A stretch of DNA of 35,865 nt from Blastocystis sp. subtype 4 (taxonomy: Eukaryota): NCBI RefSeq assembly GCF_000743755.1, contig NW_014569464.1, positions 1-35,865 of the forward strand, in the 5' to 3' direction. Shown here piece by piece: positions 3,609 to 33,226 of the stretch. How positions within the stretch are numbered: the first letter of the stretch is position 1; every line of letters begins with the position of its first letter. The notes below the pieces were generated by a model. That model did no database searches, was not told the DNA's origin, and was given only the letters and a program-made list of their open reading frames with translations. Position numbers and translations under genes: made by a program.

Positions 3609-5315
3609 CTATCCCGAATTCAAGGTTACGTAGAATCGACCTCCAATGGCCGATTCATCCAAATCACTTTTCATTACTAAAAGACAGAGTAAACACTCCT
3701 TGTAACAACTCTTAAACATCTCCATAAAATCATTTAGATCCAATGGGCTTTCACACGATTTCTTGTCAGGACCCACTTGATTGACTTCAGTGAAATGATA
3801 CTCAGCACCAAACACATAGGTGAATAGTGGAAGGTTAGAACTCCGACTTAGTGATCTGACCTTGGTAGAGATGGAACTGGTGTTCTTCAACATGAACATG
3901 TCTCCAACAGTACTCATCTGACTCACACTCATAACATAATCATTCCAACCCATGAAAGCAATTCGCTTACCAGGATTTGCCTTGCTGATCTGTTGGAGAA
4001 TGCAATTATGTCGATTCAAGAATGGTTTCGATTCTGTGAACGACTTCTTGAACTCCACTCCCTAAAATGAACAGTCATCAATTATCCCCACACAACTGTT
4101 GTAGAAAATGGTAAGATCGAGAGCAGCACGCGCATCTTCTGCAGGATCATGCCCACGAGGAACACGAGTGGTATCAGAATGAATACTCTGGTTGTGACTA
4201 GCACTTTGGATTGATCGATTAAGATAATGAACAGTCAGATATCGAAGTGAATGTTTGAATCCAGGTGTAGGATGAGTATATCGTACTGCTGTATCAATTA
4301 CACGGTCAGGAACAATCTTCAATACCGAGAGATCATTCTCCAGAGAGTGACCAACTAAAATAATTGGCTTCCGTGTCAAGAGATCGAATACCTCCTTCTG
4401 AATTACTGGAAATGCTATGGAATGATTGTAAGAATCAGGTTTCACAGTTAGTACAATTCTTGATAATTTCGGGAGTAATTCCTGACCATTCTGTGCGATA
4501 ATCTGTGATCTCACCTTCTGGTTTCACATATTTGTCATATAAAATTCCCTTCGTTGATACCACACTTATATGAGCCAGTTCATCACGGTGTCCCATAGTC
4601 TCCACCATTTCACAATCCAAAGCAAGCAAATCACTACAACTCATAGAATTCCATTAACGAAACTCTTCTAAATATTCATCTAATACTTCCTTACAAGCAT
4701 CTTTCATAAACAGAAAACCCTCATTTGCCAATTCTTCATGATGTTCTAGAGAATCAATCTGATATACATCCTACCTTTTGACCTGACAACCATATAGTTA
4801 TTGGCCTGTAACTCTTCTTCAGTAAGACACATAGATGAATAGGATAGTTTATCCACCCATAGAGATTCTTCACCTGACGATCTACTTCGCTTTTGAGACT
4901 GGATACCATAAAACAAGTATTGATCCCAAGAATCTGGAATGGGAGCTTTTCGAACTGGAACTGAACACAAAGAAGATAATAACTCATCATTCACTAAAAT
5001 TGAAGGAAAAATGGACACTTACTTAGTTCGTTATCACGAACGGCAATAAAGGTAACATTTCGAATATTTGGCTTGTTTCCAATAAAAATCCAATTTGGTG
5101 GAAGTGGTTCCATTGTCAATGTCCAAAGAAGGAAATTACGTACATCCTACAAGTTGTCAACATTCCAAAAAGCCATACCATGACAGAAATACCCGATTTA
5201 CGCTTTTCCAATTTGTCGATAGCTGTTTGGTTGATTTCGAAATAAGGCGACTAGATGATGAGAAGGAATGATAGAGAGTAACCTTAATTCGATGTGTTTG
5301 GTCTTCATTGTCCAT
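3609..5315 (-). CDS. DEDDh RNA exonuclease, REXO1/REXO5/Rex1-like
   Basis: Exo[31 protein letters not shown], Exo[17 protein letters not shown], and Exo[17 protein letters not shown]. Probable ATG at 5315. Confidence 0.9.
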
Positions 5316-5709
5316 TTCATAAATAACAAATGGTTTATTTTAGGTCTTTATTTGATCATTTGGAATGATTGTGCATATTTAACAAAAGAAGAGAACTTCA
5401 CCGAACAAATGCATTCTAGTTGATGTTTAATTCGTTAACATGGGTACCACCATTCTGACTGTTGGTTTAAAGAAAAAGAAAGGCATTCTAGAAGATGGAA
5501 CCACATTAAACAAGAAGAGATACTATTAGAATAACAGTATGTGACTTATTCCCGCGGTTCATAACAATGAAACGCCCTCTCTCGTTCTCCAACTCGTCAC
5601 AGATTCGTCAATCAAATCCAGTAGTCAAGTATGTATTGCAAAATAGTGTCTCCTTGGATGGACTTGTCGATAGAGCGAGAATGGTTGTTTAACTGGTTTC
5701 TAGACAAGA

Positions 5710-6184
5710 ATGGCTCCCATTCGTAAGGTGAAGATTGTAAAGAAGAAGTTGACTTCGTTCCCTCGTTTTCAGGCTGATAAGTTCAAGAGAATGAATGTAC
5801 GTCTTGTGTTGAGAGTTGAGGGTCTAATTTTTGTAGCAGCACTGGAGAAAGCCCAAAGGTATTGATGGACGTTGCAGACGTCGTTTCCGAGGTGCTACTC
5901 TGATGCCCAACATTGGTTACGGTTCTAATGCTGCCACCAAGCACATGCTCCCTAACGGACTGTACAAGTTCATTGTGAGCAATGTGAAGGATCTGGAGCT
6001 TCTGATGATGCATAACACCACCTATTGTGCTCAGATTGCTCATAACGTTTCTGCCAAGAAGAGAGCTGAGATTCTGAAGCGTGCTAATGAGCTTTCGATT
6101 CGTGTGGTGAATGGAAAGTTGGAATGGAGGAAATGGATAATTTGTAGCGCTGCTGTAACCAAGGTTGAGGCTGAGGCTGAATAA
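5710..6184 (+). CDS. RPL32: 60S ribosomal protein L32 (eL32)
   Basis: [13 protein letters not shown]...[17 protein letters not shown]...MPNIGYGSN...[10 protein letters not shown]. Introns at 5797-5836 and 6118-6147, with a probable 5'UTR intron at 5629-5703. Confidence 0.97.
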
Positions 6185-19896: not shown

Positions 19897-19998
19897 TAGA
19901 AAGAAAAACTGAACTTTAGAAAGAAAAGAATGGATAAGCGAATAATGAAACGCCCACTTTTCAACAGTCATTTGACAACTAGTGTTAATCTTGTGTCT

Positions 19999-22133
19999 AT
20001 GGATTTTCTGAACCATCCAAAATATTATCCAAGTGAAAAGGATGAGTATTTTCCACAATCTGAGAGAGTTGTCTTAAATACATTGTTGTTTGGTGATAGA
20101 ATTATTTTACCAGAAGTATGCATACGTATTGGACTATGATCCATAGGTGTTATTGCATCCTACACAAGATGATAGTTCTATTCCTTGTACCTATCTTTTA
20201 CGGCCTGTTCATCCAACAGAGAACAGTAATCCCGTTGTTTGTGGAGTGTTAGAGTATTCAAAGCCAAAGGGAGTAATTGAAGTCTCCAATGATGTTTATT
20301 GAGATGTTGCATTTTAATAGTATAGGTATTAGCAAATCTTGGGATTGAAGAAGGAATGGAAGTGACTGTTGAAGAAATAACTCTTCCTAAGGTATGGACA
20401 TTGGATTTGATTATGATTGTAGGCTTCTTTTCTAACTCTTAGAAGTATGGATGTGATTCAAGGTTCAAATCATTTGGAACGCATGCTGATGAATCGTCTG
20501 ACAGAGCGATATTGTTGTGCCTTTCTTCATGAAAGGATTGAGTTAGAGTCGATTTTGATTGTGATTCTGAAACATAGTTGGGAAGGGAATCACTATACCT
20601 TTTCAGTGGAAGAAATTGAACCAAATTGGGCTTGTTCTCTCGTGGATACTGATATGTCCCTCCAATGGGATTTTAGGTATGAAGAAACTCCTCAGCCATC
20701 CGAAACTGCATTTATACTCACTGCAGAGAGCCCCAATCTCCATTTGTCTACCAAAGTCAATGAAGTTATATTATTGACAGTTCTTCCCTCAAATCACCGT
20801 CAACTCCAAATCAGGGGTCACCATCTCTATTGCGTGGTCTTTCAAGCAATTCCCAAATCTAGTTATGACTATGATGAAGAAACGCCCATTGGACCATATT
20901 TCAATAGTGGAGTGATCGAATGTGATGAAGAATGCACAGTATCACTCTCTGATGAAACACGCTTTCGAATTGAGATTATGGATGGATCGGAAATAGATTT
21001 TCACTTAGGAGAGAAGAAAACCGATCTTTTTCCTTCCGATGGAATGGTTTGTGAGAATTGTGGAAAATCAATTAGTCGATCCGTGTTTCAAGTCCTTTCA
21101 TTTAGTGAACCTGACCCGTAGATCCATTCTATTCAATGCAAACGACGCATCATACGTTGTCCCATCTGTCAGCAGCCATATAATCAACAGAATTCCAATT
21201 ACCATGTTCATTGTCCTCAGTGTAACCAAGTCACTTCAGAACAGCATCTTCCTCTTCATCAATCTCTGTGTCACAACACTCAGTCATGCCATTGTGGGTT
21301 ATCCTTCTCTATTCCATCTCTCTCCCATCACTATCGATTTGAATGTCCCACAAGAACTCTTCATTGTCGCTTTTGTGGTGAGAAACATCGATTTGATGGA
21401 CAAGGAGACATCCGAGTGAGGGGATTTAAGCAAGACCCAGTGGATCGATTCAATGGATTGTCGCTTCATGAGTCCATCTGTGCGAATAAGACGGTGACGT
21501 GTCGATACTGTGGAGAGTATGTGATGTGTCGCTTCCTCAGTGAACACTATCTTACTCATCATCACATCGCTCGTAAAGATGACTTAATCCAATCACCTGT
21601 AGTGAATGATTCACGAAGTGTTCTTTGTGAGGTGTGCGGGTATCGACAGCAATCAGTTACCGATTTCTGTCTCGTAACTATGTCTTGAAAATGTAATGAA
21701 AGAGATGTAATGCGATAATGAATACAACTTCACTGAAAAAGCAGTGCGTCTGCTCCAATACAATGTGTGAAAGGATCTTTGTGGAGGAAGATGGTCTTCA
21801 AGTAGGAATGATTATTGGGTATTCCGGTAGTATGGACTCTGTCCTGAGTGCTACAAAGGAATTGTGAAAGGAAATGGTGATGCGAAACAGTTCGTCAAAT
21901 CTCTAATGGTTCTTTACTTAAATCAGTGGGTGAAGGGCTGTAATAAGAAGAATTGTGGGAATCCATTTTGCAAGTGTTGTGGCCCTCATCCTAAAGAAGT
22001 GGATGCTGCATTTTCTTCCATTTCGTTGAAGGAATCTACCCAAACGGAGCTTCCGAGGGTTCTTCTTGATCTCACCAAGATTTCGGCCTCACAAGTTCAA
22101 TTTTGGGTTTGCAAATCTATGTTCAAGTCATAG
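19999..22133 (+). CDS. UFD1-domain protein with TRAF-type zinc fingers and a C-terminal AZUL-like domain
   Basis: UFD1 (UT3)-like blocks GDRIILP, CGVLEYS and LPKASFLTL. Cys/His repeats include CENCGKSI and HESICANKTVTCRYC. The C-terminus has LYLNQWVKGCNKKNCGNPFC. Confidence 0.8.
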
Positions 22134-22219
22134 CGTCTTTTCAACTGTTTGTTCATTAGGAGTTTTGAAACTGAATTGGGATCCCAAATGCGGTCTCCCA
22201 AAAATACTATTACTTAACG

Positions 22220-23979
22220 ATGTGGAGAGAACTAGCAAATGTATTACTGGCTCTAGCTATCACCGTTCTTTACATTGTATTTTCGGGGACTGCGACTAAG
22301 GAGAGTCTGCTTCACAAGGAGGTTCTTCAGTGGAACTTTCTATTTCATACAGACGATGTTTCTATATACAAACTCGAAAGTGAAAAGTAGGAATTAAGGA
22401 AGTCCGTTAATTGTAGCTTACGAGACCACTCACATCACATTTTGACGAGTTTGGATCCGGTACAGCAGTTCGATATTTCGTTAACTATTAGACTAAGAAT
22501 CCAATTCACTCCGTTCCACAGAAGTCGTTTTTTATTCCTGCAGCAGATCTCTTGTCTCAGCTCGTTCCTACGACTCCTGTTCCAACTATTCTTTCTAGAT
22601 TACCTAGTTTGATTCCACCAAAGTTAGAAGAGCCTACAGTCATCATTCCAGTTAAGGGGAAAGAACCAACTTCCAATTATTTCCGAGTGCCGGCCTATCG
22701 AGTGATTCATGGTCAGTCCTTTGGTTCTTACTATCTTGACGATATATCCAGAGGTGTAGTTACTCCTGAAGTGGTTACCAAGAATTTCTTCTTCTCCATT
22801 CTGTTTATTCCTCTTTCGTCAAGCGAGAAGGATAAACAACAACAGCTCTTCACCCAATTTCTATTCTATATGGATTCTTTGTGTTCAAAGACGAATCAAG
22901 ATGGAGATGTTATCATTCTTACTCCTCATCGTCTATCTGGTTTTGGCAACAATATTCGCTCATTAATGACTGCGTTTTACATTGCAGTTACGACCAATCG
23001 AGGCATTCGTGGTAGTTCTGTTTCTAATCCATAACATATAGTCAATTCTACCCCAAGTATCTACTGGAATATGTTTGTTCCTTTTTCAAATTTCACTGAT
23101 CCATATAGGAAATGGATTGTGAAGATGGAATGGATTCAAACAGAAATGGAGAGACAACGGTTCTTAAGACATCCTATGAGTTATTATTACCGCTATCATG
23201 CATTTAGTCTACGTACATTTTCTGATATGACATCCTCATTCATTAATCCTACTCTCTATCAAAGTGTATTTCAGAGTGATGGTATTATTCCTCCTTTGAA
23301 GGAGAAAGCTTCGGCTATCTATTTGGGACAGATGTTTCGTTCTGCTATGCTACAAGTCCTAATCAATCCAGAGGAAGGTCTCTGTAATCTAATCAACGAT
23401 CATATTGAGAAATTGAAGAAGCGACATATGATTGGAATTCAGATCCGCGTAGGAGGGTCCGAATCCAACTACAAGGAGAGACGGATTCAAGGCTACTATG
23501 CAGTGAACCATTTTTTTAATGAAGTAATTCGCTACATGAAAAAGGAGAAGATTAAACCTCAGGATGTATTCGTGTATATTTCCACAGATTCTGATATTGT
23601 TCTATCTAACATATCGGAGTTATTTAAGAAGATTCGTCCAGATATGGTGTATTCTGTGACTGATTTCCGTATTGGTCATTCTGCGATTGGTAAAACATAT
23701 CACGGAGATGGAGATGCATGGAAGGAATATAGCAGTCGAGCATTGATGGATCTTCTAATTCTCAAGGAAAGTGATTTTCTTGTTTTTTCTCAGGGTAGCA
23801 GTTATGGACAGTTTTCTCATGAGTTACAACAGACTTACAACAATCCAATATCTCCTAAGGAGTATTTGGAAGCAAAGGGATTAAAATGTTCTGTGTATGG
23901 TCATCGAAAGTTTGCTGGAAAAGCGAGGATTATCAAGAAGACTACTTCTCGAATGTTTGTGCCTTTGGAATCTCTTTAA
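22220..23979 (+). CDS. Type II membrane fucosyltransferase-like glycosyltransferase (GT37/GT23/GT11-like motifs)
   Basis: N-terminal signal anchor MWRELANVLLALAITVLYIVF. Motifs SGFGNNIRSL, IGIQIRVG, VYISTDS and ALMDLLILKESDFLVFSQGSSYG. Confidence 0.75.
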
Positions 23980-24909: not shown

Positions 24910-25372
24910 TTACTGCTGGCTCTTGACGTACTCAAGAACAACTCCCAGAGCGGGACTGTCCTCACCAAAGTCAGTAATGACAGCGCTAGAGCACTTGACG
25001 ATCTTTCTGGCGTTTCCCTCAGCATCAATCTTGCAGAGTCCACACCACTGACCAAGGGTCTTTCCCTCAGGGATCTTGATCAGAGGAACCTGGCGATCAG
25101 CACAGAGAGCCTCAATCAGACGGGTGTACATAGCCTCATCGCAATCCTCAGCAAGGAAGCAAATCTGGGCAACACCACGGTCCAGAGCCTTCACAGCCAG
25201 ACGGAGACCACGCTGGAGTCCCTCATGGTGAAGAGCGTTCTTCAAAACCTCAGACACAGCGGTCATGATGTCCATTTGGGGAACAACGTTCACGCTACAC
25301 TTTAGCCACATATTCCATCAAGTACGGCTCAGCAACGGGTTCAGTAGCAACAGGAGCAGCTTCCTCAGCCAT
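24910..25372 (-). CDS. RPS12: 40S ribosomal protein S12 (eS12)
   Basis: MDIMTAVSEVLKNALHHEGL...LGQWCGLCKIDAEGNARKIVKCS. Intron at 25325-25295; ATG at 25372. Confidence 0.96.
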
Positions 25373-25521
25373 ATTAATCAATGGTGTCCTTAGAAGAGAA
25401 CAAATAGTGAAGAACGATTGAATGGTTACTAACGAATAGTGGTCTTTTGATTATTATAGAATTAGAATCAACCTCGATTTTTGGAATTCCCTGTATTTGA
25501 CAATCGGAAAGACAAGTCAAC

Positions 25522-28500
25522 ATGGACTCATCATTTCAAGAATTGTGCAAACTATATCTTCTGCAACTAACCAAAGGTTGCAAGAATGATAGTTGTCGCA
25601 ATATGGATTGTGCACGGAATTGTGTTTGTATGTGTTTTGCATAAATGGTAATGCAATAGATAATGATAAAAAACGAGTTACTTTACGAGCTGTGGAAATG
25701 GCGAAGAATGGGACTCTATTAAGCTGTTCTTCTGTAAATCGGGTTTTTAATACTCCTCTGGACAAAATTGAAACTGCTCTTCCTGAAACAGTGTGGGATG
25801 CTGAAACAAGTGGGAAAGTGTTGAAGTAGGATTGATATATATATTATAATTCCAAGGATTCTATCATTATCATTGAAAGATGAGAAGTATAAGAGAGTGA
25901 AGAGTGAATCGACTGTTTTTGAGAGCTTGCTAAAAGATATGCCTCTACTCTCTCTGGTATTTGCAGCTGCAGGGTTCTACTATGATCATGGTTGGATTGT
26001 GAACTAAGGTTCATGGTTAGGATACTTTGTGTTCACTTCCGATGAAAGAACTCGCAAAGTGATTGAGATTCTTCGGAAACATCAGAGTGTAGGAATTCTG
26101 TTCCATTCTTACTCTAGAAAGCAACAGACATGGAATATACATCATTCTCAAATGCATCTAAAGTACTAAAATCAATTCAAATTCATTTTAGTTGTCTTTA
26201 CTACCTAGTTCAATCATTGACAAAGATCGTCTTGTTCTGATGTCCTATGACCCTTTCATGGAACGCTATGGTCGTTGTGTGTTTCCTTCCACTGTAACAG
26301 TGGATGATGTCTTCTCGCTCAGTATTGATGGGGAATTCAGCAAATGTGATTTGTTGATAGCTCTATCATCTGACCTACAAGCCCTCCAGGATATGACAGT
26401 GACTGAAGGAGTGATTCACTGCAATTCTCCATTTGTTCTGATTCATATTCAGTTATCAGACACACCTCGATTCATTTTTGATTTTGGTTCGAATCTCTCT
26501 GTGGACGAACCATCATATCAAAGTACACAATTCCCTATTAACACAGAGTCCATTACACACAATGTTCACATTTTACACAGTAATTCTGAACTTAATCTCA
26601 TTCTCAATGTATCCTTGATCACACATCATCATAGCTAGAATCAATGTTACGTATGCTGTTCGGATTCAATCCTCTCTTCCATTCCATCCTCTGTCTTTCT
26701 TTCCATTCTCTCATATTCGAATGGTAATCACAAATTCAAAGCAACACTTGACTCCATTTCATTCCATCACTCCATTACTTCTCAACTCCTACAGCTTACA
26801 GAACCTGATGCCGATCCTTCTGATGAAATTGTGAGACTTCTATCGATCACTCACTCCCAGCATCCTTCTCTCCGAGATTCACCTATTGATAGTTTGATTG
26901 AACTCTGCCATTATGAACCGATCGAACCTGCTACTGCTCCTCTTCGGAGACGATATCCTGATTCTACTCGCATGGTAAGGATCATGAAAGATAATCACTG
27001 AACAGAGAGTTCTCCACTGTCATGACATGCGTGGCGGATATCACGAAGATTCTGCTATTTACGTAAATATTCCTGTTTTCTGGCATTGTAGGGAACTCAT
27101 TCTCCTTCATATATGTTCGAATATTGGTCCGTGATTGATCTGTTCGTCTATTTCTCTCATCATTTCATCACAATTCCAATATCCTTCCGATTTCTGAAAT
27201 CCATTTTTATCCTTGATTTCATCCAGCAAGTTGGATCGAAGCAGGTCATCAAAATGGTGTTCCTGTCCTGGGTACCATCCTTCTGGAAGGTCACTCAGAA
27301 GAGTTATTGAAGCAATTTCTCTGTGGACCTGATGCTGACGAACGGCGCGCTCCAATGTATTCAAAATGATTTTTTGTCATATTGTAGGTTTGATTCATTC
27401 TTTACTGAACGTTTGGTGAACATCTGTGATCATGCTCATTTCGATGGATACTTGGTGAATATTGAAATTCCATATATCCCCCCGAATTTACTTCGAATGC
27501 TACCTTCGTTTCTGAAGAAACTACGAGATGGACTTCATGAGTTGAATCCAGATGCTCAAGTTATCTGGTATGATAGTATTGATTCCCGTGGTTATCTCAA
27601 CTATCAAAACAAAGTGTCACGGGAGAATCAGGAATGGTTCCGATGTGTTGATGGTTTGTTTCTCAATTATTGGTGGACTCCCGAAGACCTCAATTCTTCT
27701 GTCTTATTAGCCAAATCAAGGTTGTTGTTCTAAGGAGTTTCAAACATAGAGCAAGAGATGTCTATGTGGGAGTTGATGTCTGGGGCAGAAATACACGAAG
27801 TGGAGGAGGGTGGAATGTACCTCAGGATCTGGCCCTGATTGAATCAAAAGGTTTATCGTGTGCATTGTTCGCAGCTGGATGGATCTTCGAACATGAATGT
27901 AATGGACAAATCAATGAAGTTTATTTCCAAAAAGAAAGACAATTTTGGCATCATACTATTACAGAAGTTACGATGGATGGATCAATGAAACTCCTTACTG
28001 ATCCCTCATGTGTAGCATTCTTTGTATCATAAATATCCTATGATTATTCGTAGTCCAAACAACATGACATTGGTTATTCATTACCCTTGTATTCAAACTT
28101 CAATTCTGTAAGAGATTGATTCATTCTCATATGTTCAGATGCTCTCTAAAATAGAGTATGTGAAGGGTATTCCTCACAGCCTCCATTTCTATTCACCTCG
28201 CTTCACCAGCACACAACCTACACTCGATATCTCATTTACAGGAGGAGCTGAACTTATGGCTGAGTTCAATTCTACGGATGGATTTGATGGAGATGGATGT
28301 CTCCTGATTCAATCACACTTGGGAGGTCGAGTCAAGAGTCAGGAATTACTCTTGTGGAGGTGCAACGACATTATGATCACCGAACCCATTATCATTGAAA
28401 CGGTTATGAAACGTTCATCAAAACACAAATCTCATTGGTCGTGGGTTCTTCGTGGAAATGTGGAAACCGTAGAACCCTTGAAAAAACAGAAATCAGAATT

Positions 28501-29168
28501 CATTCGGAGATTGGTGTTGGATGAATCGGTCAGAAATCACACAGAAGAATCAATTCTGATGATTGGCCCTAGTTTTCACACTCATTGTGGTCAGGAATGG
28601 GAGCGATTCTACTGGATCGTATATCCAGTAGTTCATGATTATCATGTCACATGTATTACTTCCATTTCATTGGCTTGTGAGTGTGAGACGTACGAAGAAG
28701 ATACACTGCGATTGGGTCTGTTTTATCTCAATAAGGTGGATTGGCATATGAGTCTACTTCAGGCGGATTGTAGGAATTTCAGAAATATCTAATATTTTAG
28801 ACAAACCGCAAAATGTCCGGATTCAAGTCTTATCGAACCCAACAAAGAGTAACAAGCGTGAAGAACTACAATGTGTTCACGGAGTGATTCGCTGGAATTG
28901 TGGAAAGAGTGATTTGGTTGTATCAGATGGTATTATTCCCGCAGTGAACTATTATCGTGTGTATGTGAATGGTCGACTGATTGGAAAAACAAAGTCAATG
29001 AGTTACTGTTTGAAGAGAAGTGAGTAAGTAATGACTGACTAATATTTAGAGAAAACAGGCAAGATTCGTTCATATGTGGTTCTTATTCAACCGGTTACTA
29101 TCTATGGAACATCAATTCCACTTCAACAATGTACTCCTTTTACTCTTTCTTTCTTTCATGTTTCTTAA
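25522..29168 (+). CDS. GH85 endo-beta-N-acetylglucosaminidase (ENGase) with an N-terminal AZUL domain and long linker
   Basis: GH85 motifs VLHCHDMRGGY, IDLFVYFSHH, FDGYLVNIE (catalytic N-x-E), VIWYDS, FLNYWW and GVDVWGR. The frame is open from ATG 25522 using introns 25628-25659, 25826-25856, 25991-26020, 26089-26117, 26163-26191, 26609-26638 and 26975-27005. Confidence 0.8.
27179..27222 (+). other. U12-type (minor spliceosome) intron with AT-AT termini, 44 nt
   Basis: 5' ATATCCTT, branch site TCCTTGAT (A at 27216), 3' AT. Removal restores the conserved TIP|PASW...HQNGVPVLGT. No GT occurs in the gap. Confidence 0.8.
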
Positions 29169-30638: not shown

Positions 30639-33226
30639 CTAGCTTCTGAACACACAGCAACAATCGCACGTAGGAACTGCACACTTTTGATTCTCCGTCC
30701 CAAACCATTCCTGAATATGAACTAAATGACCACCATGTCCACATCGCAAACACATTGCTACCAACCCCTGATTCTTCATATGACACACACTACAAAACGA
30801 GTTCACCTCTGCCTGACGATCACCTCGTCGACTTCGTGTAATCTCATTCTCTCGCTTCAAGTGACCTAATTGCTTCGAATCACGATGCTTTCTCCATCGT
30901 TCTGGTTTCTGTCGACTCGAAGACCGCTTGCTTAGAGGTGAACCGGGTTGTCCCGTAGGAACGAATGGAACTTCAGAGAGATCAGAGGGAGGTGGAGTCT
31001 CAGAACGATCTTGATATCGAGGTCCCTCTGCAAAGAAGTGGAGAGAAGTAGCAAAATCCTTCTGATCACCAGCAGTGGCTGTTTGATAAGTCACTTCAGG
31101 AGAATAAAGTTGAATAAGAGGAATCATCAGTTGATCACACACGCCACGAATAGTCACGATTTCTTCATAATACTCTTCTCGTGTTAGAATATCAATTAAA
31201 CCATGAATCCAGGTTTGAATTTCTGAAACTGTAGTTTTGTCGTTGCGCAGATATTCCCATAATACACAACTCATCGTAATTGCAGATTGCAAGTCACCTT
31301 CTTGTGCAAGTGCTCGTAAGAATCCCAGATCCTCATCCAGTGTCAATTGAAGTGAAAACTGACAGAGAACAGGCTCACAGAGAGAAACAGGGGATTGAAA
31401 GGAGAGAAATGAACTGGTTCGAGTAGACTAATTGTGAGGTCAAGAAAGACTGTGATACAAGAGAAATATCACCTCCAGAATAGGTACGATGAGTTGAATT
31501 GATACTATTGGTACGAGACCTGCTTTGCCGCGGGGATACGGAACTTCCAGCACGAACTCGTTCGACTCCAGATTTTTCAATCTCTTCAATCTGAATCATC
31601 TCACAGAGACTTTCCCAAATAGAGCTTACAGCAGATAAACCTGTCTGTTTAGCGATCTGTGCATGATAATCGTGATTATCGCTCACCTCGGCATTATGAA
31701 GACAAACAGCAGGAAGAGAGGGATATAGAGGAGATGGAAGATAGAGATAGGAAGAAGCTAATTTCTTTATTTGGTTGGCATCGAAACGGAATCCTTCACA
31801 TGCATACAACGGATGAAGTTCAGTTATTGTGATTCGATCTGATTTAAATTCAATTAGAAGTCTTACTGTCTGTCATTGCATTCATTACTTCATTCTCTCC
31901 AAGTGATTCTAATTCATCTTCAGTTTCACTAGCATTCAAAACCGTTGCGACCCTTTGGAATGCAGTAAGTGATAGCGGTTGCCGACAAATCAACGATTTG
32001 AAGAGTGGAATTGATTGTGACGGAAAGACATCAATTGTAGTGGAGTTGGCTCCAATTTGTAGAACAGATAGATAGTCATTTGAAGTAACTGCTCCAGGAT
32101 GCGTTAACCAACTAATCTCTTTCACTTGTTGCGATTGCTCGAGAAGACGAAGTGGAAGTGTTCTATACATCAATTGAAGATCACTAGCTTACGGTTTGCG
32201 AATGTCCCACACTCCAACCACATTATTGTCAGACATACCACTAGCAGCTAGCAGATCTTAGGGAAAGAGAACAATATCAGTCGTACTTGGATTCTGCCCA
32301 TTCCAACTAATCTTCATCACTTCAAATTCTGTTTCGATGCATGAGGGAACTTCGGCATCTTCGTTCTTCATATGATACAAAGTAGAATATAGATTCGAAA
32401 ATGATAGATTATTGGTGTTGAAAAGCAGAATGGAACGATCAGAACACCCTGCTCCCATAATGCTTGGCTTAAATGGATTATAATGGATTGTAAGGAAAGA
32501 AGCACTCATTGGATGGTTGATTTTGGAAATGGGTTCAGACGAATTGACATCAAAGAGCTAGCGATTAAAGAGAGAATGAATCTATACTAAAATTGATGTA
32601 CCCTCGTGGATACAAGAGAATAGGCTATCGTGAAACGGATCAAACTCAATAGAACTGATTCCATGACTCCCACTCGGAATAAACCACTGACTAACAATTT
32701 GACTCGAACGACGATCCTATTGGTCATTTACGATCACCACTGTTACTCTAAGGACGATGGTTCCATCTTGATAACAAGAGAGTAAGAGATTCGTGTTTGA
32801 GCGATTCCAACTGATCCCCTGACAGGTTGATAGGTGTGCTCCAACGATATTAAACGATTTGATATGCTTCTCATAGTCAACATCCCAAATCACAATATTT
32901 CCATTTACTCCAGTAGATGCCATTGTATACACTACGAATCATAACAGAAACAAACCTTGACTCTCATTCGGATGTGGTTTCAGATATTTGATCGGATAGG
33001 GTCGTTCTCTCCTCTTTTCTCGAGCCAATTTGATCTCCTCATGTTTGTATCTCCATTCGGAATCAATAGACACCACATCCAAGTCTATTACTTAGGTTCC
33101 ACTTTCAATCAAACTGTTTTGGCATCCAATAAAGATCTTGGAGTTATCAATCCGACTTGGACAGAACGTATTTACAACACCTTCCGTCTTGATGCTAACT
33201 AAAGGATCAACCTCGTAGTTACGCAT
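30639..33226 (-). CDS. WDR24: GATOR2/SEA complex WD40-RING protein, WDR24/Sea2-like
   Basis: N-terminal WD40 repeats (NGNIVIWD, LLLSCYQDGTI), VCLHNAE, AQEGDLQSA, and the C-terminal RING CSVCH...MCLRCGHGGHLVHIQEWF...CDCCC. Confidence 0.8.

Follow-up and report, generated by a model that had tools for sequence, protein, structure and literature searches.

A Blastocystis gene predicted to join AZUL, PUB and probable lectin-fold domains to a GH85 endo-beta-N-acetylglucosaminidase

Contig NW_014569464.1 of Blastocystis sp. subtype 4 (NCBI RefSeq assembly GCF_000743755.1) was analysed over positions 1 to 35,865 of its forward strand, a stretch of 35,865 nt that we call the window. On its plus strand, at 25522-29168, lies a gene for an endo-beta-N-acetylglucosaminidase (ENGase) of family GH85, in which the order of domains in frame is AZUL, a likely PUB domain, a probable L-type-lectin-fold domain and the GH85 ENGase. 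At the DNA level this architecture is real and conserved. A first-pass annotation, made from the letters alone, had proposed a fusion of AZUL and GH85; the architecture is richer than it claimed, as the PUB domain (residues ~84-156) and the probable lectin-fold domain (residues ~174-354) had both been overlooked. The window has ~40% GC, introns of 29-32 nt and 14 exact TGTTTGTT motifs versus 2.7 expected, a number that none of 100 shuffles reached, and GC, introns and motifs of this kind have been described for Blastocystis (PMC5608401).

The spliced model comprises 17 exons in a single open frame that starts at ATG 25522 and runs on the plus strand through 25522-25627, 25660-25825, 25857-25990, 26021-26088, 26118-26162 and 26192-26608 (exons 1-6), 26639-26830, 26861-26974, 27006-27062, 27092-27178, 27223-27356 and 27388-27720 (exons 7-12) and 27750-28023, 28054-28107, 28139-28769, 28801-29019 and 29050-29168 (exons 13-17). 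Spliced alignment to the window of the homologous protein of a related lineage, L007, returned the same 16 introns. The seven GT-AG introns of 29-32 nt and the open frame to the RVLHCHD motif that had been reported at first pass are there, but a likely eighth intron of 30 nt (26831-26860, plus strand) had been missed; it is in frame and open if retained, was found by aligning the L007 protein, and has the same position and phase as introns of L007 and of another related lineage, L004. The intron before it (26609-26638, plus strand, 30 nt) is specific to the lineage of the window, ends in an in-frame TAG and has a U12-like 5' end, GTATCCTT, without a clear U12 branch motif.

At first pass, seven typical introns had been said to lead into an intact GH85 domain. 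Typical introns alone do not keep the domain intact, as no GT-AG or GC-AG intron was found near 27180 inside GH85 and the frame is restored only by splicing of the non-canonical intron 27179-27222 (plus strand, 44 nt), the retention of which truncates the protein at 505 residues. This intron has ATATCCTT at its 5' end, CAT at its 3' end (AT-AT ends) and the branch-like TCCTTGAT, and its ATATCCT 5' end, TCCTTxAx branch and conserved position mark it as U12-type. At the same codon the relatives have AT-AC introns of 38 nt (L004) and 37 nt (L007), in each of the three lineages the branch-like motif is only ~6 nt upstream of the 3' end, and the AT-AT 3' end in the window is deduced from the register with these relatives. 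U12 introns are present in Blastocystis (PMC10639083), reportedly by the hundreds (PMC5608401).

At its 3' end the frame reaches a genomic TAA after 1,049 residues, whereas the true gene end is likely a polyadenylation-made stop after T29154, at residue 1,045. The one-mismatch poly(A) motif TGTTTCTT (29159-29166, plus strand) begins 5 bases past T29154, and cleavage after T29154 would create TAA, in keeping with the 5-base rule for such stops in Blastocystis (PMC5608401). We favour this end because the C-terminus is then in register with the ends of both relatives. No exact TGTTTGTT occurs on the plus strand from 25400 to 29168, which bears out the earlier remark that no poly(A) motif intervenes, and within the gene one-mismatch sites are found at 25623, 26276, 27653 and 29159 only.

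The AZUL zinc domain had been placed in exons 1 and 2, and there it lies (residues 1-58, 25522-25727, plus strand), divided by the intron 25628-25659. Against Pfam AZUL PF16558 (cut-off 23.8), exon 1 by itself reaches 30.6 bits (E 3.9e-7) and the relatives reach 29.0 and 32.3 bits; the profile was above cut-off in all six copies scanned (window exon 1, L004, L007 and P0024-P0026; copies P0022, P0023 and P0027 fell outside the Pfam scan). All the best PDB sequence matches of exon 1 are E6AP AZUL chains. The cysteine pattern is present down to the distal fourth residue, as had been read, and Cys20, Cys25, Cys30 and Cys58 are invariant in 7 of 7 aligned Blastocystis-type rows; the first three align to E6AP, and Cys58 falls outside the PDB alignments.

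Residues ~84-156 (25803-26082, plus strand) are likely a PUB domain. PUB clusters account for 27 of the 30 matches in the ESM Atlas (score 0.90, 199 shared features, recognition 2453), the best of them listed as oomycete on one record, and exon 3 matches Pfam PF09409 over about profile positions 23-57 with an E value of 0.0063, below the cut-off. No PUB family was found in prokaryote controls. Two observations speak against this assignment: PF09409 gives 16.9, 14.6 and 12.4 bits in the three lineages versus a cut-off of 34.3, these being scores of 44-residue exon pieces rather than of the spliced domain, and the pocket that in PUB domains receives the p97 tail is degenerate. In PNGase this pocket depends on Tyr51, Arg55 and a cornerstone Asn, equivalent to N102 of HOIP (PMC4017264). 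Here KY 101-102 and GF 130-131 are kept, and the pocket Tyr with them; across the three lineages the +4 position is K/N/N and the cornerstone position, +7, is S/A/A, both counted from the Tyr on the assumption of ungapped alignment, with the Asn absent in 3 of 3. The opposite face of the PNGase PUB domain binds ubiquitin or the ubiquitin-like (UBL) domain of Rad23 (PMC4017264). The AlphaFold model of a PUB fragment without its first helices was poor, with a predicted local distance difference test score (pLDDT) of 49.9; with this poor model Foldseek found nothing at E 0.001 and the best VIA match had Z 3.6, no PUB being listed. PDB sequence searches with PUB pieces gave no PUB chain.

The middle domain, residues ~174-354 (26192-26764, plus strand, spanning the intron 26609-26638), probably has the fold of an L-type (legume) lectin, a ConA-like beta-sandwich. 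A lectin-like pattern was spotted by eye before the Atlas search, in which the top matches were legume-lectin families (score 0.92). Most of the long VIA alignments paired the domain with SPRY and galectin sandwiches, and they were weak (Z <=4.1). Several results run counter to this assignment, namely that the Atlas recognition of 2295 with 146 shared features is slightly below the tool's marks, and that a profile built from 5 bacterial L-type lectins was not matched by the domain (probability 0.17%, below the best shuffle). DG and EFDT are motifs of L-type lectins; neither is kept by eye and the sugar site is not evident, as judged with no reliable lectin alignment. The AlphaFold model of the domain is poor (pLDDT 45.6), Foldseek found nothing with it at E 0.001, and a PDB sequence search returned a single weak, unrelated match. 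Sugar binding by this domain is less likely than the fold itself.

The ENGase portion begins with an N-terminal segment (IDSLxxLCxYE ... LRRR; 26861-26974, plus strand) whose last residue, Met414, lies at the exon edge. Residues 376-414 are 41-46% identical to the relatives, and a similar segment precedes GH85 in two loci from other organisms, L009 and L011. The catalytic barrel (27006-28023, plus strand) has the GH85 motif RVLHCHD, keeps FLNYWW and scores 110.3 and 64.4 bits on two exons with Pfam PF03644 (cut-off 22.2). Aligning L004 to Endo-A (N171, E173, Y205) placed the catalytic residues at Asn531 (27458-27460), Glu533 (27464-27466) and Tyr568, and all three are kept in 3 of 3 lineages; the roles of the Endo-A residues are those given in PMC2646837. 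The position of Endo-A Trp216 is a Tyr. The predicted reaction is hydrolysis of the chitobiose core. The barrel is followed by a C-terminal beta-rich region (residues ~728-1045, 28139-29153, plus strand) that is 43-46% identical to the relatives and has no Pfam or NCBIfam match; NCBIfam matched none of 8 pieces of the protein. As the hydropathy of the N-terminus is below 0.3 in all three lineages, with no signal peptide-like start, the location is likely cytosolic. Blastocystis subtype 1 (ST1) has a single GH85, AV274_0673, listed as endo-beta-N-acetylglucosaminidase, and the N-glycan pathway genes Alg1, Alg3, STT3, GH47 and GH38 (PMC5608401); AV274_0673 would be the ST1 orthologue of the enzyme described here.

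A metagenome scan yielded 11 loci from 98 candidate stretches. L001-L003 and L008 belong to the lineage of the window (99-100% identical), L004-L006 form one further lineage (54-55% GC), L007 another (55.5% GC), and L009-L011 come from other organisms. L004-L007 match the entire protein in order, and the spliced models built for two of these four, L004 and L007, are open over 1,053 residues each, agree with the window at 14 of 16 introns in both position and phase (an L004 intron lies at 5970-5999) and are syntenic with it on both flanks of the gene. That AZUL and GH85 belong to one gene, as first proposed, thus appears in three lineages alike. GH85 identity between the window and the two relatives is 57-59%; AZUL is 58-75% and PUB 40-70% identical across the three lineages, with the proportion of nonsynonymous differences (pN) well under that of synonymous ones (pS). 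Between L004 and L007 all 8 regions compared have a lower pN than pS, comparisons with the window being saturated. Six more first-exon read-throughs from further lineages, which come with no genomic context, have the same AZUL start. None of six outside loci (L009-L014) had AZUL, PUB or lectin-like modules around GH85, as judged with low-sensitivity profiles and, for L010, on only 1.1 kb.

Two further observations concern these loci. L008 lacks 5 nt of the GH85 HCHDM motif (corresponding to window 27021-27025), through an assembly error or a null allele. In L011, which encodes a ciliate-type ENGase, ~130 open codons (~5209-5620, table 6) precede the GH85 N-terminal segment and look LamG/ConA-like by eye; this stretch has no Pfam match.

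Elsewhere in the window, a Ufd1-like gene (~19930-22133, plus strand) with weak UFD1_N1/N2 matches and a TRAFD1-type zinc finger lies 3.4 kb upstream of the ENGase gene. Its end carries a second AZUL (21831-22133, 30.0 bits, above cut-off), with TGTTTGTT next at 22146, so AZUL is not special to E6AP; the domain may travel with proteins of the p97 and endoplasmic-reticulum-associated degradation (ERAD) type. An eS12-like ribosomal protein gene (24910-25390, minus strand; Pfam PF01248) is divergent from the ENGase gene across a gap of <200 nt and is syntenic in L004, L006 and L007. The remaining features are an open reading frame that resembles a fucosyltransferase (23035-23979, plus strand; a weak match to FUT8_N_cat) and a long minus-strand gene, the C-terminal zinc-ribbon/RING end of which lies at 30639-31427.

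Whether one protein or two are made from 25522-29168 is a question that the region between the lectin domain and the barrel has to answer, and we consider a single fused product from AZUL to GH85 very probable on the strength of the genomic reading. Neither relative has the intron 26609-26638, and the 42 residues that follow it align gap-free to theirs, with scores that 5 and 13 of 10,000 shuffles reached, respectively, for the two relatives; the intron therefore interrupts a domain and does not mark the end of a gene. The stretch 26639-26974 stays open whether the eighth intron is removed or kept, as do 75 of 10,000 shuffles, and no poly(A) motif was found in it even with one mismatch allowed. 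Some points nevertheless weigh against a single product. The single mRNA is itself a deduction from genomic DNA, and since the L004 and L007 models were seeded from the window protein and corrected by hand, the agreement of introns is partly circular. Residues 313-375 are just 12-15% identical between the window and the relatives, with pN/pS of 0.42/0.50 between L004 and L007. All 3 models have a Met just ahead of the GH85 core and its RVLHCHD motif, and this Met is a possible start; here the first-pass statement that exon 26639-26971 has no in-frame ATG was in error, as the exon runs to 26974 and closes with the in-frame ATG of Met414. Finally, an exact TGTTTGTT, absent in the window, sits in the same GH85 intron of L004 (5697) and L007 (5698). 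This is the next-but-one intron after the Met, cleavage there by the 5-base rule gives no stop, and the motif may be there by chance or reflect intronic polyadenylation. Together with the intron after the lectin domain, which if retained leads to a stop at residue 400 in L004 and 396 in L007, the common Met and the weakly conserved residues would fit two proteins, one an adaptor with the AZUL, PUB and lectin domains, the other an ENGase of its own that starts at Met414 or slightly upstream. We regard this as highly improbable: from the lectin domain to GH85 the window has no stop, poly(A) motif or intergenic gap, an ENGase beginning at Met414 would lose its conserved N-terminal segment, and no other Met between the PUB domain and GH85 is common to the three models. 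The idea that stop-bearing introns are placed differently in each lineage was dropped; the intron after the lectin domain is common to all three.

Given the fusion, we propose, with a probability of roughly 0.45, that the spliced protein is a cytosolic deglycosylase recruited to the ERAD and proteasome path. Its AZUL and PUB domains would tether the enzyme to carriers of the ubiquitin-proteasome system; with the glycan presented by the lectin-fold domain, GH85 would cleave the chitobiose core of extracted glycoproteins, such that one N-acetylglucosamine (GlcNAc) stays on the protein before degradation. In favour of the proposal, ENGase can deglycosylate ERAD substrates directly, as reported for mouse cells without Ngly1; against it, such direct action is reportedly harmful in mammals (PMC5398483). 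The most likely partner would be a shuttle of the Rad23/Dsk2 type with UBL and ubiquitin-associated (UBA) domains, by analogy with known interactions; a diverged p97 tail or the proteasome subunit Rpn10 would be the second choice. The shuttle is ranked first because both canonical surfaces are altered, and the second partners known for the two domains, the UBQLN UBA for AZUL and the Rad23 UBL for PUB, belong to UBL-UBA shuttles; the E6AP AZUL binds the UBQLN UBA weakly, at ~460 uM (bioRxiv 10.1101/2022.09.29.510132). Recruitment through Rpn10, as the first-pass annotation had envisaged, would mean that AZUL docks the enzyme on RAZUL, the C-terminal part of Rpn10, as it does in E6AP. The AZUL domain is genuine by its Pfam and PDB matches, and the E6AP AZUL binds RAZUL with an affinity of 12 nM (PMC7064531). 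The contacts of the E6AP AZUL with RAZUL include K25, R26, A29, I33 and Y37 (PMC7064531), however, and by the PDB alignment the corresponding residues here are M1, D2, F5, C9 and L13, 0 of 5 identical (N-terminal and helix-1 contacts only, those of helix 2 not being alignable), with the basic K25/R26 patch missing. Moreover, RAZUL is absent from fungi (PMC7064531), and AZUL is found also on the Ufd1-like gene of the window, which suggests a partner for AZUL older than the RAZUL of animal Rpn10. Support for Rpn10 in particular as the docking site is therefore weak, and we judge it improbable; of the earlier proteasome tether, the link to the ubiquitin-proteasome system is strengthened by the likely PUB domain of the same protein.

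The recruited deglycosylase has to be set against an ENGase with an ordinary job, in which the fusion is real and the enzyme trims oligosaccharides that a separate PNGase has set free, while AZUL and PUB position it, bind other partners or are leftovers. Trimming of free oligosaccharides is the normal role of cytosolic ENGase (PMC9102325, PMC5398483) and both docking surfaces are altered; conversely, the conservation of AZUL and PUB over three lineages with pN under pS argues against structural leftovers, and we hold this alternative to be somewhat unlikely. A bolder extension of the recruited deglycosylase would be that in Blastocystis ERAD PNGase has been replaced by an ENGase that acquired its docking modules, namely AZUL, PUB and a domain of ConA fold, with N-GlcNAc proteins degraded as the normal route. 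We think this doubtful. The word 'glycanase' was not found in the text of 24 of the 33 supplementary files of PMC5608401, which include no full gene list; the nine textless files may bear on this point.

The enzyme is thus a known one, a GH85 ENGase, in what appears to be an architecture not found in print in the literature searched. A full-text literature search, with most subscription papers outside its coverage, found neither AZUL together with a PUB domain nor Blastocystis together with GH85; matches for ENGase with PUB domain concern NGLY1 only, as judged by title and start of abstract, and with wider terms none of the matches listed mention Blastocystis. Protein searches gave no full-length annotated orthologue, these searches being weak for long proteins and database absence not being implied: with the GH85 exon against longer proteins 3 of 47 candidates matched, each a short fragment from a gene caller, the middle domain found none among 1,893, the AZUL profile found 1 of 7,998 (an AZUL-HECT protein, E 4.9), and HMMER over cluster representatives returned 6 proteins of 71-156 residues, all unnamed first-exon read-throughs. 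In InterPro, AZUL and GH85 may already be visible together on the ST1 gene model.

If the proposed recruitment is true, the two deglycosylating enzymes, though unrelated, can stand in for each other in ERAD, and the removal of sugars from misfolded proteins bound for destruction, elsewhere done by another enzyme, would here fall to an ENGase. Blastocystis would then put the N-GlcNAc hypothesis of NGLY1 deficiency to a natural test (PMC5398483), as under replacement of PNGase the N-GlcNAc proteins thought toxic in the human disorder would be its normal route. Should the enzyme only trim free glycans, the architecture would be lineage-specific and of modest significance. In either case AZUL, which within one window occurs on both an ENGase and a Ufd1-like protein, is seen here as a mobile module beyond E6AP-type ligases.

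Each part of the protein has a known counterpart. Its AZUL resembles that of E6AP/UBE3A (PF16558; PDB 6u19, 2kr1) in the core LxxxYxxQLTxGC-x4-C-x4-C and the distal Cys; unlike E6AP, the protein is without a HECT domain, does not keep the helix-1 contacts to Rpn10 and begins its AZUL at Met1. With cytosolic GH85 ENGases (human ENGASE; Arthrobacter Endo-A, PDB 2vtf/3fhq) it shares the barrel, Asn-x-Glu, the Tyr and the FW motifs, whereas the replacement of Trp216 by Tyr and ~375 extra N-terminal residues with AZUL, PUB and the lectin-like fold set it apart. As a whole it is best compared with animal PNGase/NGLY1 (PUB - transglutaminase core - PAW), in which a PUB domain, a catalytic core and a mannose-binding domain are combined and the proteasome is reached via HR23 (PMC9102325). 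The first-pass annotation had drawn on PUB-domain PNGase as an outside analogy, and a likely PUB domain lies within the protein itself, its pocket altered. A PUB domain, a deglycosylating core and a domain of glycan-binding type would stand in one chain in both; yet the Blastocystis protein has an additional AZUL, and as a glycosidase rather than an amidase it would leave Asn-GlcNAc instead of Asp.

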